Of a DNA stretch of 37,917 bases, positions 7,265 through 13,169 are shown one piece after another (position 1 is the stretch's first letter; the number at the start of each line of letters is the position of its first letter). Origin of the DNA: a virus (Duplodnaviria; Caudoviricetes); the IMG/VR virus record IMGVR_UViG_3300049982_000039, positions 1 through 37,917 of that record. One strand, given 5' to 3'. The position numbers were made by a program, and so were the translations under genes. The notes under the pieces were generated by a model that saw only the letters and a list, made by a program, of their open reading frames with translations, was not told where the DNA came from and made no database searches.

Positions 7265-7642
7265 ATGAACAAAGAAAAAAACAAAGAAGTGAAGGTCGCC
7301 GCCAATCCTGGGTTTCACATCGCGTTCTTCACTACGGCCCAAGGCGATGCGTTGAACGTGTTCTTGCAACTATCTGGGGGCAGCGAGCCCCAGATAGTTT
7401 TTGCGCGCAAGAACGGGGCGTTGCCGCTCTACGAATACTCGCTGTCTGGCCTGTTGAATGCGATGCTTCACAGAACAAGCTTTACATGGTGCATGGACGA
7501 TGATGACCCAATCGAATCAGCGGTCACGCTCTCAGTGGACGATGTGCAGCGCATAGGCAAGATCGCTTCTTCAATGCTTTCTCCGTTCATGGGCCGGTAC
7601 GCACTGGCTTGGGCCCCATTCAATCCGCAAGAGCCGTTTTGA
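7265..7642 (+). CDS. Hypothetical protein
   Basis: GGAG RBS before ATG 7265; no recognised motif. Confidence 0.6.
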   Translation: MNKEKNKEVKVAANPGFHIAFFTTAQGDALNVFLQLSGGSEPQIVFARKNGALPLYEYSLSGLLNAMLHRTSFTWCMDDDDPIESAVTLSVDDVQRIGKIASSMLSPFMGRYALAWAPFNPQEPF

Positions 7643-7659
7643 ATGTTGAGGATCCGGGC

Positions 7660-8589
7660 ATGAACAATTCAAATCTTCCGCAATTAACGATCGACGAAGA
7701 ACTGCGCGTATGGATCGACCCGCTGTCATCCGAAGAATATTCGCTCCTGGAAGCGAGCATATTGCAAGACGGCTGCCGTGATCCGCTAGTGGTCTGGGGC
7801 GGTTATCTGCTGGACGGGCACAACCGGTATGAAATTTGTCTGAAACACGGCATTGAGTTCCAGACGTTCGAGAAAGCCGGCTTGAAGACGAAGGCTGACG
7901 CCAAGATATGGATGATCGAGAACCAGCTCGGCAAGCGCAACACAACCGACTTCAGCCGCGCCGCCTACGTTCTCAAGCTGAAGCCATTGCTCGCGCAGCG
8001 AGCTAAAGAGCGGCAAGTCGGGACGTTGAAACAGAGCAATTCTCCCGTTCGTCCCATTTCGGACGAACGGGGAATTCGCACTGATGACGCTTTGGCGAAA
8101 ATGGCTGGCGTGGGTCGAAATACCGTGCGCAAGGTCGAAAAGATCATCGAAAAGGCGGCGCCAGAAGTCATTCAGAAGGTGCGCGCCGGCGAAATGTCGA
8201 TCAACGCCGCGGCCAAGACAGTCGAACCGCCAAAGCCAAAAGCGCCCGAGACTCCCCGCGATGAGCCGCCCCGGCCGGCGCTCAAGCTGGCTGACACACC
8301 GCCGCACCCCGACGTTGAAGGCGATCCGGAAAGCTATGGCCCATCCAAAGAAGAGATGCAAAAGTCGCTTGATGACGAGGCAGCCGACATTGACGCGCTG
8401 CGCCGGTGGGCCGAGTCGGATGACAAAATTGCCGCTGCTCTGGCAGAAGTAAAACAACTCCGCGAACTGAATCGTGTCCTGAAGTCGCAGAACGACGGTA
8501 AGCAGAACACGATCAACGAGCAGATTCGCATGATCAGGTCCCTGCAGCGGCAGGTGAAGAAGCTTGAGCAAGGGCGCGCCGCAGCATGA
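7660..8589 (+). CDS. ParB/Srx-like N-domain protein with HTH and C-terminal coiled coil
   Basis: SILQDGCRDPLVVW..LLDGHNRY motif; LAKMAGVGRNTV HTH; GAGGA RBS. Confidence 0.85.
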   Translation: MNNSNLPQLTIDEELRVWIDPLSSEEYSLLEASILQDGCRDPLVVWGGYLLDGHNRYEICLKHGIEFQTFEKAGLKTKADAKIWMIENQLGKRNTTDFSRAAYVLKLKPLLAQRAKERQVGTLKQSNSPVRPISDERGIRTDDALAKMAGVGRNTVRKVEKIIEKAAPEVIQKVRAGEMSINAAAKTVEPPKPKAPETPRDEPPRPALKLADTPPHPDVEGDPESYGPSKEEMQKSLDDEAADIDALRRWAESDDKIAAALAEVKQLRELNRVLKSQNDGKQNTINEQIRMIRSLQRQVKKLEQGRAAA

Positions 8590-10124
8590 GGGATATGTTC
8601 AACAGCGGTGTGCCGGATTACGCGAATGCGACGTTTCCCGACCCTCGCGAATTCCAGGTCGCCGCACATGATGCACTGCGAGCAGGCTATGCGGCCGGCC
8701 ACAAGAATCAGGTCATCATGGCACCTACCGGAGCCGGCAAGACCTACCTGGGCTTGCGTATCGCCCATGAAGCCCTGTTGAAGGGCAAGCGGGCCCTGTT
8801 CATCTGTGACCGCACCACGCTGATCAATCAGACCTCCGCCGTGGCTGACAGTTATGGCTTGACCGAGCACGGCATCATTCAGGCCGATCATTGGCGCGGA
8901 AATAACTACCCGTTTCAGATTGCGAGCGCGATGACCCTCGCGGCGCGCAATCAATGGCCAGCGGCGAACGTGATTATCGTCGACGAATGCCATACTCAGA
9001 TCAAGGTCTGGACCGAGTACATCAAAACCTGTAAGGCGGCGGTCGTCGGGCTTAGTGCCACGCCATTCTCAAAGGGACTCGGGAAACTGTTCTCGAACCT
9101 GATCAACGCCACCACCATGCACGCGCTTACCGCGTGCGAGAAACCGGTTCTGGTTCCGATGCGCGTCTTCTCCTGCACCAAGCCGAACATGGCCGATGCG
9201 GCAACGAACGACGAGGGCGAGTGGACCAGCATCGCGGCAGCTGAGCGCGGCATGAAGATCGTCGGCGATGTCGTGACCGAATGGATCAAGTTTGCAGAAG
9301 GGCGCAAGACCATCGTTTTTGCCGCAAACATTGCACACTGCGAAGAGCTCTGCCGGCAATTCAATGATGCGGGAATCATGGCGTCGACCTTCACCTCGGA
9401 AACCAGCGCGCACGACCGGGAACAGATACTGGCGGAGTACTCAAAGCCCGACTCGGTGATCCGCGTGCTGATTTCGGTGGAAGCGCTCAGCAAAGGTTTC
9501 GATCGTCCTGATGTCGGCTGCGTGGTCGATTGCCGGCCGCTGCGCAAGTCGCTCTCCACCGCGATTCAGATGTGGGGCAGGGGGCTGCGAGCATCTCCAG
9601 ATACCGGAAAGAAGGATTGCATCCTGCTGGACCATAGCGGGAACATCCTGCGATTCGCCGAAGACTTCAGCGACATCTTTTACAACGGGCTGGACGCGCT
9701 CGACGCCGGCGAGAAACTCGACAAGACGGTACGCAAGGAAACAGAAGAAAAGGACATCGTCGCCTGCCCGAGCTGCGGCTTCAAACCCTATGCGCGGCGC
9801 TGCATCTCCTGCGGTTTCGAGGCCAAAGCACCGTCCCTGATAGAGCACGAGCAGGGCGAAATGCGCGAAGTCATTATCGGCAAGCGCAAACTGGCGGACG
9901 ATCCGCGCCATCTATATGCGCAACTGTGCGCCTATGCCCGGACCTATTCGAAGCCGGAAGCACAGAAGGGCCGCGCCGCCCATCTGTACAAAGACATCAT
10001 GGGTTCATGGCCGCCGAACGAATTCCGGTTCGAGACCACGGCCGACACACCGATTTCTCATGCGGTCCTCAATCAGATCCGCTCAAAAAATATCCGGCAT
10101 GCGAAAGGCAGGAAGAGCGCATGA
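8586..10124 (+). CDS. SF2 DExH helicase with C-terminal Zn ribbon
   Basis: APTGAGKT, DECH, SAT, KGFD, QMWGRGLR motifs; CPSC...CISC. Confidence 0.95.
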   Translation: MRDMFNSGVPDYANATFPDPREFQVAAHDALRAGYAAGHKNQVIMAPTGAGKTYLGLRIAHEALLKGKRALFICDRTTLINQTSAVADSYGLTEHGIIQADHWRGNNYPFQIASAMTLAARNQWPAANVIIVDECHTQIKVWTEYIKTCKAAVVGLSATPFSKGLGKLFSNLINATTMHALTACEKPVLVPMRVFSCTKPNMADAATNDEGEWTSIAAAERGMKIVGDVVTEWIKFAEGRKTIVFAANIAHCEELCRQFNDAGIMASTFTSETSAHDREQILAEYSKPDSVIRVLISVEALSKGFDRPDVGCVVDCRPLRKSLSTAIQMWGRGLRASPDTGKKDCILLDHSGNILRFAEDFSDIFYNGLDALDAGEKLDKTVRKETEEKDIVACPSCGFKPYARRCISCGFEAKAPSLIEHEQGEMREVIIGKRKLADDPRHLYAQLCAYARTYSKPEAQKGRAAHLYKDIMGSWPPNEFRFETTADTPISHAVLNQIRSKNIRHAKGRKSA

Positions 10125-10972
10125 ACTTCGCCACCTTCGCCAGCCTGCACGGACTGATCGTCGGCGATGTCTACGCCAGCGACAAGATCAAACGCTGCCC
10201 GACTGAAATGCATCCGCGTTCGGACAACGGCGCGTATTTCTTTGATGGCCGCCGGGGATGGGTGTTTGCATGGGATGGCGCCGCGCAAACAGTCTGGTGG
10301 AACGATGAAACCGCAACGCCTTGGACCGATGCGGAAAAACGCGCATGGGCCGAACGCCGGCGCAAAGAGACCGAACGCCGGAAGGATATGCAGCGCCGCG
10401 CCGCGGTGAGTGCGCAGGAACTGATCAAGCGCTGCAAGCCAATGCCGCACAACTATTTGCGCTCGAAGCAGCTGCCCGATGTGATGGGCCTGGTCAACGA
10501 GGAAAACCATCTGATCGTGCCGATGCGCGACCTTGAGACCAATGCGCTCCACGGGGCGCAAGTCATCCGCTGGCTGATGGAAGAACGGCAGTGGGAAAAG
10601 AAGATGCTGCCGGGGATGAAGGCTAAAGGTGCTGTCCTGCGGCTGGGATCGGTCAAGACCGGGGAAACGTGGCTGTGTGAAGGGTATGCCACCGCACTCT
10701 CGATTGAGGCGGCCCTGCGTCGTCTGAATGCGAATGCGAGCGTTCTGGTGTGCTTCTCCGCGAACAATCTGATGCAGGTTGCGCCGATGGTTAAGGGGCG
10801 CCGGTTCGTCTATGCGGATCACGACAAGAGCGGCACTGGGCAGCGCGCCGCTGAGGACACAGGACTGCCGTTCTGCATGTCCGATGTCGAGGGCAATGAT
10901 GCAAATGACGATCACTCGCAGTTTGGGCTGATGGCGGTCTGCAAGAAGATCATGGAGGCGCGGCGGGCATAA
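10121..10972 (+). CDS. TOPRIM-domain primase
   Basis: LCEGYATALS and YADHD motifs; ATG 10121 overlaps helicase stop. Confidence 0.88.
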   Translation: MNFATFASLHGLIVGDVYASDKIKRCPTEMHPRSDNGAYFFDGRRGWVFAWDGAAQTVWWNDETATPWTDAEKRAWAERRRKETERRKDMQRRAAVSAQELIKRCKPMPHNYLRSKQLPDVMGLVNEENHLIVPMRDLETNALHGAQVIRWLMEERQWEKKMLPGMKAKGAVLRLGSVKTGETWLCEGYATALSIEAALRRLNANASVLVCFSANNLMQVAPMVKGRRFVYADHDKSGTGQRAAEDTGLPFCMSDVEGNDANDDHSQFGLMAVCKKIMEARRA

Positions 10973-10988
10973 GGATTGAGCAGTAACC

Positions 10989-11410
10989 GCAACCGGATAT
11001 GTTCAGGGTGAACCGCGTAGGGTCCGGACGCGTGACAGTAAAGGCGACCAACTAAGCTTAAGGGTCGCGCCGTGGTGGTGGCACTGCAGCAGCATGGAGA
11101 AATTTCTGATGGACGGCACCAGCACGAGAGTGTGGGGTACGCGCAAGCCTTCCGGACGTCAGAAACCATGTGGTTGTGGGCGGGGCAGAGCGGCTAGGGC
11201 GTGCGCACAACGGCACGCGATAGTCTGCCCAGTCGGGATGCAACGTTTAGCGAAAGCCCGACCCGGTTGTAAGAGTGGATACCTCATTTATACCGGATGC
11301 CCCAGGTCCGCGATCTTCTGGTCGTGGCTTGGGATGGTTATGCCGGAAGGTCGAGCGTTTCCTATTTTCCCGGTTGCAGGCGTCAGTCAGGTAGAGGCAA
11401 AGCGCTTACA
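10989..11410 (+). ncRNA. Candidate large structured ncRNA or structured replication origin
   Basis: Many nested helices with G-U pairs and GNRA loops filling the primase-downstream intergenic space (detailed in findings). Confidence 0.65.
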
Positions 11411-11443
11411 AGAACAGCAGCTAGACATTAGAAAGGGGTCCGA

Positions 11444-11740
11444 ATGAAATTGAGTGAATCGGAGTTGGATGACCTGCGCTATCTGCGCCGGCGCTATGGG
11501 TGGGATGACAGGGACGCTCGTGGCGTGATGGCGGCGATTGCGGAAAGCGAGCAGGGCCCGCGCTATTTTGTGGTGCTGGCGGCAGCTCACCGCGCCGGCT
11601 ATGAACCGGCTCCGGAGAACGATTTCATTCGCCTGAATACCTGGTGCGTCGAACAGGGATTTGGCGATCCGTTCGGCCCGGAATTTGATCTGGCGGCGCT
11701 GCAGGCGATGGGCCGCGACCTGGTGGAGATGGCGGGATGA
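11444..11740 (+). CDS. Hypothetical protein
   Basis: AAGGGG RBS; coupled to next gene. Confidence 0.7.
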   Translation: MKLSESELDDLRYLRRRYGWDDRDARGVMAAIAESEQGPRYFVVLAAAHRAGYEPAPENDFIRLNTWCVEQGFGDPFGPEFDLAALQAMGRDLVEMAG

Positions 11741-12054
11741 GCAATTTGGTCGAAGTGACGCAAGCGATGGTCGACGCTGCGCTCGCGGCCGGCAAGGCAT
11801 CCGGGGCGCTGGCGGGCAATGCGAGGGCAGGGGATGTGCGCAGGCTGATCGCGGCAGCCTTGGGTGAGGCACCGGTGAAGGAAAACGGCGTGCGCTTCAA
11901 TCTGCTGGTGAACACCGCGATTACGGTCAAGAAAGCCCGATTCCTGGGCGCGACGGGGCAGCGGTGCTACTACCGGGTGGAATGCGAAGACGGGCAGATT
12001 CTGACGGTGCACGGCAACGAGATCCATGCCGATGGCGGGACGCGGCAGGCATGA
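11737..12054 (+). CDS. Hypothetical protein
   Basis: ATGA coupling on both sides. Confidence 0.7.
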   Translation: MSNLVEVTQAMVDAALAAGKASGALAGNARAGDVRRLIAAALGEAPVKENGVRFNLLVNTAITVKKARFLGATGQRCYYRVECEDGQILTVHGNEIHADGGTRQA

Positions 12055-12560
12055 GACTGAAACGGATCACGGCGAGGCAGCAGGCTGTGTTGGACTTTGT
12101 TGTGTCCCAGATTGGCGACAAGGGGTTTCCTCCCACGCGCGCGGAAATCTGCGAGCACTTTGGTTTCAAATCTGCGAACGCTGCGGAGACCTATCTGGTG
12201 ATTTTGCGCGACAGGGGTTACATCACGCTTATCAAAGACATAGCGCGCGGCATTCTCGTGAGCCCGGAGCAAATGACGGCATTTCGCATGAGGCATGCGC
12301 TTGCAATGCCTGGCTCGACAGCGTTTGCCCTCGTTGCCGACACCGATGATCTGCCCGGCCGGCTGGCATTCCTTCGAATGCTGAAGGAAAAGACGGTATA
12401 TGCCGATCACGCGACCTTGGGCCTGATCATTCAGGACTACGAGCGGACATTCCGGTTGCGGCGCGCGGTAGAGCAGAGCGTGGAGAACGAGGACCGGCGC
12501 GGCCGAACGATGCGACCGCAGCAGCGCAATCAGATTTCACGGTTTCAGAAGGTCGGCTAA
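12051..12560 (+). CDS. LexA DNA-binding-domain protein lacking the peptidase domain
   Basis: TARQQAVLDF...GFPPTRAEICEHFGFKSANAAE..L..RGYI....ARGI closely follows the LexA N-domain; unrelated C-terminus. Confidence 0.85.
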   Translation: MRLKRITARQQAVLDFVVSQIGDKGFPPTRAEICEHFGFKSANAAETYLVILRDRGYITLIKDIARGILVSPEQMTAFRMRHALAMPGSTAFALVADTDDLPGRLAFLRMLKEKTVYADHATLGLIIQDYERTFRLRRAVEQSVENEDRRGRTMRPQQRNQISRFQKVG

Positions 12561-12587
12561 GTGAGCTTTTACAGGGAGAGCAGGGCA

Positions 12588-13169
12588 ATGACTGAGATTT
12601 TCAATAGTGCGCACGCTGCATTGACATTCGCATACCGGTTTTCGTCCGAGCAGTATGATCGGCCGCTAATGAACCGACTCGCCGACAAGGAATCCCGCAC
12701 AGGCAAAGGGCTGGCCGGCATGAACGGCGCAGGGCAGGCCGGAATGATCCGCAGAGAGGTCAAGGCGCTGGGCGACCTGTACGAAGCCCTGGTCATTGCA
12801 TCCTTCGCGCCGCACGCCACCCCCTGCACCTGCAAGGCATCGTGCTGCGCCGGGGAGAAGGTGAACCGCGAGTGGAGCGATGCTATTTATTTGATCACCA
12901 TGAGCGCCATGCAGGAGCTATCGGGGAAACTATCGCATTACGCGTTGCGGCGCGGGATTATTGAACGCCACTTCGGGGTAAAGCGGACCATCACGGAGTT
13001 GGCAGAGCTGTGCGGCGTCCATCGCGATACGGTATCCGAGCACAATTCCATCCTGACGCTCTGGCTTGCCGGTGACAGGCGGCGTGATACGCCGAACGCG
13101 AAGGTAGGCGAGATTACCAGGGCGATCGCGGCCGCTGGCGAAAGGCTGTCGTTATGCGGAATGGTATAG
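12588..13169 (+). CDS. Probable Q-like late antiterminator/regulator
   Basis: Last early gene before late promoter and terminator; CxC...CC cluster and C-terminal HTH (ITELAELCGVHRDTV). Confidence 0.6.
   Translation: MTEIFNSAHAALTFAYRFSSEQYDRPLMNRLADKESRTGKGLAGMNGAGQAGMIRREVKALGDLYEALVIASFAPHATPCTCKASCCAGEKVNREWSDAIYLITMSAMQELSGKLSHYALRRGIIERHFGVKRTITELAELCGVHRDTVSEHNSILTLWLAGDRRRDTPNAKVGEITRAIAAAGERLSLCGMV

Follow-up and report, generated by a model that had tools for sequence, protein, structure and literature searches.

The window, by which we mean the whole 37,917-nucleotide stretch analysed, is a 37.9-kb IMG/VR phage record with an estimated completeness of 86%. Its genes run from an integrase and repressor-like genes through a ParB-like protein, an SF2 helicase, a TOPRIM primase and several small genes to HNH, terminase, portal and capsid genes further along (Pfam and PHROG assignments). 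The nearest named relatives of the primase come from Burkholderiales, which is the sole basis for naming a host. Neither an initiator nor a DnaB-type helicase was found among the window ORFs scanned (28 by Pfam, 31 by PHROG), in keeping with the initial annotation, which had noted that an O-type initiator and a hexameric helicase were missing. To our knowledge, the lambda model does not explain how replication starts in phages that combine a monomeric SF2 helicase with a TOPRIM primase and have no O-type initiator. The structured element described here begins 20 nt past the primase stop codon (Table 1). Beyond it, a gene for a LexA DNA-binding domain (11964-12560) and a 202-aa gene without family match (12561-13169) lie at the place of the lambdoid late antiterminator.

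Non-coding nature and novelty of the element

A 117-codon ORF crosses the element, but its aligned frame meets an early stop in 16 of 16 homologues and its ATG is present in one of the 16; a coding role was rejected on this lack of conservation, and the earlier description of the region as non-coding stands. At gathering scores, Rfam 15 detected no family in the window, RNAI included, and a search of 10900-11500 returned one chance snoRNA match (E 7.1). ARAGORN and Rfam found no tRNA or tmRNA, which agrees with the original judgement that the element was not recognisable as either of these, as RNase P or as a group I/II intron. We found no paper that describes it; PMC5737381 and PMC10690425, both available in part, could catalogue a fragment in their supplements. 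By comparative analysis, the element is a real and new RNA family without an Rfam match, the outcome of a check put forward with the initial annotation.

Table 1. Coordinates of genes and structural parts at the locus (window positions).
Feature	Position	Strand	Evidence
ParB-like protein gene, opens the module	7609..8589	+	PHROG 4715, E 8e-14
SF2 helicase gene (ResIII, Helicase_C)	8586..10124	+	Pfam; PHROG 16
TOPRIM primase gene, 283 aa	10121..10972	+	Pfam Toprim_3; PHROG 2249; 917 homologues
Whole conserved structured element, ~370 nt	10993..11365	+	17-sequence alignment A4, covariation, fold z -4.5
P1 hairpin CCGGAT/GTCCGG (10993-98/11022-27), conserved loop (TTCAGGG..AACCGCGT..GG)	10993..11027	+	at least 6 pairs in 17/17; alignment
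P2 hairpin, conserved AACTAAG..AG loop	11044..11068	+	89.4% paired; both-side changes in 4/5 pairs
Pseudoknot strand X (GCCGT), then GG; partner 11190-11194	11069..11073	+	100% paired
P4 long arm, variable interior, GAGA loop at 11126	11084..11179	+	two helices, covariation
Spurious 117-codon ORF across the element	11094..11447	+	no family match (Pfam, PHROG)
P5 helix GGGCAGA/TCTGCCC, encloses strand B (11190-94) and P5b	11183..11230	+	covariation
Inner hairpin P5b, inside P5	11199..11218	+	covariation
Kissing loop, P5b loop (11205-06, 11209-12) with P6 loop (11244-47, 11250-51)	11205..11251	+	covariation
P6 hairpin GTCGGG/CCCGAC	11232..11262	+	97.1% paired
Conserved GGATACCT word	11277..11284	+	alignment
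3' domain, P8 hairpin with G-rich 3' arm, then conserved GTTTCCTA end	11301..11365	+	per-sequence folds, alignment

Homologues and covariation of the fold

Homologues were sought in 244 loci gathered via the primase, from which nhmmer first recovered the element in the three loci L052, L061 and L121, and next in L073 and L236. Four IMG/VR pattern scans contributed additional copies; one of them yielded 120 stretches, mostly chance, from which members were chosen by nhmmer, and L245, L248, L283 and L304 were discarded as chance pattern matches. Model R1 contributed one copy, in G030, which was also its only match in a weak search of 151 + 151 bacterial genomes (24 candidates per genome scored); across 300 sources it gave no additional member. 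Blastn searches of GenBank phages, for which the copies from the window, L369 and L073 served as queries, and of plasmids, for which the L369 copy was used, gave nothing significant. The 18 distinct homologues come from betaproteobacterial and freshwater phages, and 17 sequences, 43-59% identical to the window, were aligned (A4) after exclusion of near-identical copies (L256, L277, L336 and duplicates).

Folding energy by itself was weak evidence until the region was trimmed to its conserved part. The interval 10960-11440 folded just modestly better than its shuffles (z -1.97 on the + strand, -0.30 on the - strand), whereas 10985-11366 reached z -4.5 on the + strand and -0.65 on the - strand (40 shuffles). 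The initial proposal that nearly the whole 470-bp gap is folded is confirmed in part. In the main helices, 86 cells hold G-U and 8 hold A-C; because G-U outnumbers A-C to this extent, the + strand is the folded one, as had been suggested.

Under the named structure 92.4% of 982 cells are paired, compared with 76.9% in shuffles and 36-45% with slid partners; the structure came from the same alignment, so that these whole-structure controls favour it and more weight falls on the per-pair tables. Compensatory changes on both sides occur in 38 of 59 pairs, which is what the covariation check on homologous loci, also proposed at the outset, has returned. They affect 8/8 and 4/4 pairs in the two P4 helices and 2/5 in the H-type X/B pseudoknot, and in the kissing helix, which is 100% paired, all 6/6; P5 and P5b are paired in 98.3% and 98.0% of cells. 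Two included helices fared poorly. The long-range helix GGATAC/GTTTCC, proposed for the conserved GGATACCT word (75.6% paired), is misregistered and unsupported in the register tested, and the P8 hairpin at 11301-33 is present in per-sequence folds but reaches only 76.5% in a fixed register. Loop tips include GNRA on P4 in 4/17 sequences and UNCG on P8 in 5/17. We conclude that the sequence is conserved, that its predicted RNA fold includes a pseudoknot and a kissing loop that both covary, and that the structure so predicted is under selection.

The comparison revises the initial fold in several places. All the sequences it quoted lie where it had put them, and GCGACC/GGTCGC (11044-68), the long arm 11084-11179, GGGCAGA/TCTGCCC with inner GCGTGC/GCACGC (11183-230) and GTCGGG/CCCGAC (11232-62) are kept in homologues with compensatory changes, as is, by per-sequence folds, the hairpin at 11301-33. 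The closing helix 10989-96/11263-70 has at least 6 pairs in just 4/17 sequences, and the CGCGT/ACGCG arm has its 5 pairs in just 4/17, with P1 formed instead in 17/17; GTTCA/TGAAC is not conserved (by eye on the alignment), and the last arm (11353-408) falls away because conservation stops near 11365. Of the GNRA loops named, GAGA at 11126 is a loop of P4, whereas GAAA at 11252 sits in the kissing loop and is no tetraloop. Neither the pseudoknot (11069-73 with 11190-94) nor the kissing loop (11205-12 with 11244-51) had been part of that fold.

Strand X has a second potential partner. The B word is nearly duplicated just 3' of X in 17/17 sequences, and X can pair alternatively with this near-copy (11086-11090). 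Changes in X are tracked by both copies of the word in L073, L236, L275 and L297, which suggests a folding switch between the two partners.

Gene neighbourhoods and related RNAs behind the primase

The element lies behind the primase in the window, L052/L061/L121, L073, L236 and L395, and upstream of the ParB-helicase-primase operon in L400, L369, L403, L402, L404 and L405, so that it usually flanks this operon, on either side. In one lineage (the L275/L307/L335/L297 group) it stands ahead of terminase, separated from the primase by ~8 kb in G003 and 11 kb in G008. The suspected tie to the replication module survives as adjacency to helicase and primase in most lineages, not as a fixed place behind the primase. 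A primase profile matched in 12/26 element-bearing records and in 3/5 of those at least 90% complete; most records missing the primase are 5-16 kb fragments, and G020, a further record at least 90% complete, has the helicase.

Other copies have different neighbours. In G011, a 24% complete fragment, the element is divergent from an O-like initiator, and a restriction to initiator-less phages is not supported. In G023, a 94% complete provirus, it follows cro and directly precedes an RNase H gene that starts at its 3' end (PHROG 531, E 8e-47). No primase or helicase matched in G023, nor did any replication family among the 28 of its 81 ORFs scanned. An RNase H gene, 68% identical to that of G023, is also next to the element in L395; the catalytic domain matched at no other fetched locus, and there is no RNase H beside the element in the window. 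The two cases share one RNA subtype and may reflect a single event. The G030 copy has no replication gene within 17 kb.

Some features of these loci are recorded as observations. The G023 RNase H (L409:7184-7867), immediately 3' of the RNA, carries an N-terminal extension, and ~1.2 kb of gene fragments (L409 7900-9100) occupies the place where replication genes usually lie. The G030 copy (L428) is in a gene-poor island of a Thauera genome, beside a tRNA-like gene (by eye). A small Cys-rich ORF follows the element in L052/L121, L073, L398, L400 and L403 and is missing from the window; the ~80-aa Cys-rich protein (L412:2738-2989; also L052, L073, L121, L400, L403, L114, L041, L027 and L222) occurs in primase loci without the RNA as well. 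An HNH-like ORF lies 3' of the element in L236 (by eye). Some 200 nt ahead of the RNA, L052, L369, L393, L396, L398, L400, L402, L403 and L405 have a promoter-like stretch, a long imperfect hairpin and a T run, a leader that the window does not have and that resembles c4/CI-type antisense-controlled leaders.

The slot behind the primase is often filled by other RNAs. Betaproteobacteria-1 (RF02932, an Rfam family of unknown function) stands there in 3/3 relatives in one set and 4/19 in another. Among 158 distinct primase loci, each with at least 1.5 kb downstream of the primase, 64 carry Betaproteobacteria-1, 5 this element, none both and 89 neither, a mutual exclusion that is suggestive only, as few lineages are involved. 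Eight of the 89 remaining loci have another conserved element, family C, whose layout matches ours, the P5b-P6 kiss included; model R1 lands on its P5, at E 0.24-1.5 only, and Rfam had no match to it in L012. In all, related RNAs fill the slot in at least 77 of the 158 loci.

Betaproteobacteria-1 shares with the element this position behind the same primase family, a covarying H-type pseudoknot in which X is followed by GG, a helix arm ending AG(A/C) and a duplicated word. It differs in length (~195 nt versus 370), in lacking the P4 arm between X and P5, in a kissing pairing of its own that uses the P2 loop and in giving no Rfam or HMM cross-match; the element matched RF02932 neither at the gathering cut-off of 49.4 bits nor at E up to 10. 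A pseudoknot-core descriptor, written post hoc once the families had been viewed, matched 14/17 sequences of this element, 40/55 RF02932-like and 6/8 family C sequences, against no more than 2 matches over ten rounds of base shuffling. We read the element, family C and RF02932 as structural relatives.

Separate observations concern these and neighbouring loci. Family C, structured and ~290 nt long, immediately follows the same primase and comprises P1, P2, a pseudoknot, P5 and a kissing loop (L012:4381-4698, L054, L062, L067, L091, L096, L099, L106, L116, L225 and L226). The RF02932-like family (55 sequences) runs ~75 nt beyond the Rfam model; a covarying pseudoknot and a pairing between loops are present, and one of its strands can choose between two partners. 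A family D, conserved and with apparent X/B pairing, lies 140-450 nt past the primase stop (L024, L026, L055 and others), and L041 has yet another conserved element behind the primase. In some relatives, tRNA arrays lie past the primase and ahead of the next genes (L004:5152-5633, L144:6113-6876).

A candidate origin RNA and its alternatives

The best single reading, which we hold tentatively, is that the element is a transcript-borne replication origin RNA that works like plasmid RNA II. In this scheme, transcription that begins with the early rightward operon would continue across the element; once folded, the RNA would remain paired with its template as an R-loop close to the G-rich 3' domain and be cut back to a primer by RNase H, after which the phage's helicase and primase would assemble the fork. 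Switching of strand X between the two copies of one word would time folding, and in the lysogen the origin would be silenced along with the repressed operon, so that no antisense RNA would be needed. These steps, from transcription and R-loop to priming, helicase and primase action and the X switch, we infer from the layout and from ColE1 biology as given in the available parts of PMC8683028 and PMC7157519; conservation, covariation, strand, non-coding nature and gene neighbourhoods are established for the element.

The closest plasmid likeness is to pES213, a Rep-less and atypical MRB member. In the available text of PMC3035462, its origin fragment is sufficient for replication, is under repression by RNA I and yields a larger RNA in the opposite direction; apart from 110 bp, it is not homologous to other MRB origins. 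From a promoter and a terminator read by eye, its + strand would be RNA II. On this strand, at 2916-2970, pES213 has a putative equivalent of the P5/P5b/P6 kissing module: a P5 helix with a CAGAG arm and an inner hairpin that kisses the next hairpin. Of 11 plasmid loci, a kissing descriptor, written post hoc after pES213 had been viewed, matched pES213 alone; the kiss there spans 6 bp, against a background of 2 such matches per 1.47 Mb. Mean local alignment z was 4.4 for pES213, 3.1 for ColE1 and -0.1 to 2.1 for four other MRB origins, with seven controls at -0.5 to 2.4; pB1005 gave 1.4 and pAsa2 -0.4, and pAsa1, which carries a Rep gene, was set aside as uninformative. Short words and a similar 3' end (by eye) are also common to both, but some of the words come in another order, the profile scores are not significant, and pES213 is a plasmid that has an antisense RNA I and does not require a phage helicase or primase. 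Model R1 lands at the right place on pES213 at E 1.4, for a single sequence with no diverged relative for covariation, and pES213 was not among the matches of the 3'-end HMM. In the pES213 origin region (L429:2690-3140), a loop word of the type AAC(T)TAGCG.AA, known from P2 of the phage RNA as well, occurs three times, and the word GTCGGCA is duplicated.

The likeness to ColE1 is more distant. The ColE1 origin and seven relatives have a helix with P5-like flanking words (AGAGCG and ATAGTC in ColE1) and a covarying long-range pairing; in the ColE1 family and MRB, an upstream loop pairs with the strand after the P5-equivalent helix. We noted this covarying pseudoknot at L418:934-940 with 1077-1083 in the ColE1 family/MRB RNA II regions, and also in L431 and L432-L435. 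The MRB origins described by PAGEV (RF03037) have the helix order P1-P2-P4-P5 with an inner hairpin. In both ColE1 RNA II and PAGEV, however, X sits in a hairpin loop and no P5b-P6 kiss was found, and ColE1 RNA II is ~550 nt long with an RNA I overlap. ColE1-type origins also depend on an R-loop, RNase H cleavage and extension by Pol I, for which the RNase H gene adjoining the element in two records is the only, indirect sign here. Direct homology to ColE1 RNA II was rejected: model R1, HMMs in both directions and the descriptor (pseudoknot core, 0/8 in the ColE1 family) all failed, the PAGEV covariance model matched 0/5 element records, and MRB profile HMMs gave no cross-match with the element either way. 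The initial suggestion of a ColE1 RNA II-like role is accordingly retained as a tentative role, and membership in that family is dropped. A phage precedent comes from cluster A mycobacteriophages, whose RNA-based prophage origins involve, in the available text of PMC7157519, a non-coding RNA beside par genes that is needed for replication. There, that text states, it serves extrachromosomal prophage maintenance and is dispensable for lytic growth, whereas the window phage has an integrase; the likeness is one of description, accompanied by the negative blastn against the phage collection.

For the origin reading we count the selected structure, the usual position flanking the helicase-primase operon, the RNase H gene at the 3' end in G023 and L395, the putative kissing module in pES213, the upstream-loop pairing of the ColE1 family and MRB, the helix order of PAGEV and the mycobacteriophage precedent. 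Against it count the terminase-side lineage, the O-like initiator in G011, the isolated G030 copy and the absence of any significant profile match to the plasmid origins tested. A phage with its own primase, moreover, does not obviously need an RNA pre-primer, and 10500-11800 shows no sign of an antisense RNA I, as it contains no promoter-like and no terminator-like sites.

Several of these points would suit an RNA that controls transcription or acts in trans, by antitermination or as a scaffold for helicase, primase or a small zinc-finger protein, and that is no origin; we consider this unlikely, if the least so of the alternatives. Such an RNA would be free in position, as found before and after the operon, before terminase and after cro, could accompany an O-like initiator as in G011 and would fit both the small Cys-rich ORF in L052/L121, L073, L398, L400 and L403 and the promoter-like stretch, long hairpin and T run (by eye) ahead of several homologues. 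It leaves unexplained, however, the RNase H gene at the element's 3' end and the module apparently common to the pES213 origin, and the window is without the small ORF.

That the element acts instead as single-stranded DNA, a priming signal that loads primase or helicase, is improbable. It adjoins both genes, and comparative folding does not separate RNA from ssDNA (available part of PMC5737381), but the GNRA and UNCG tips on P4 (4/17) and P8 (5/17), the kissing loop with the pseudoknot, and an orientation that agrees with the downstream gene in the contexts shown all fit RNA better.

A ribozyme with a group I-like core, cutting or circularising its own transcript, is very improbable. The pseudoknot helices are nested in the same order as in group I, with invariant bases at the helix junction, and we take X/B, P5 and P5b to resemble P3, P7 and P8. 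Group I introns have a P7 with a bulged guanosine-binding site and interrupt a host gene; here P5 is a continuous 7-bp helix without such a site, the position is intergenic, and no Rfam intron or ribozyme matched. Equally hard to credit is a selfish or vestigial mobile RNA settling in transcribed intergenic gaps, for which the scattered positions, the gene-poor island of G030 and the HNH-like ORF of L236 (by eye) might speak, since the copies share no mobility gene and the filling of one slot by related RNAs at at least 77/158 primase loci suggests a needed function.

A wider version of the origin reading is more doubtful than the reading itself. The element, family C, RF02932 and probably more would form a superfamily of interchangeable origin RNAs that primes replication in a sizeable group of initiator-less SF2 helicase/TOPRIM phages and shares ancestry with pES213-type RNA II, and RNA plus RNase H would be the whole replicon in some prophages; we regard this as possible but rather unlikely.

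The element is a defined cis element with two covarying long-range pairings that can be broken and restored, and, whether or not it is an origin, a new 370-nt RNA with two pseudoknots suited to structural work. Under the origin reading, RF02932, an orphan in Rfam, would gain a candidate function. Should the connection with pES213 prove true, the range of RNA-primed origins would widen from plasmids of gammaproteobacteria to phages of betaproteobacteria, and small replicons for Burkholderiales could result.
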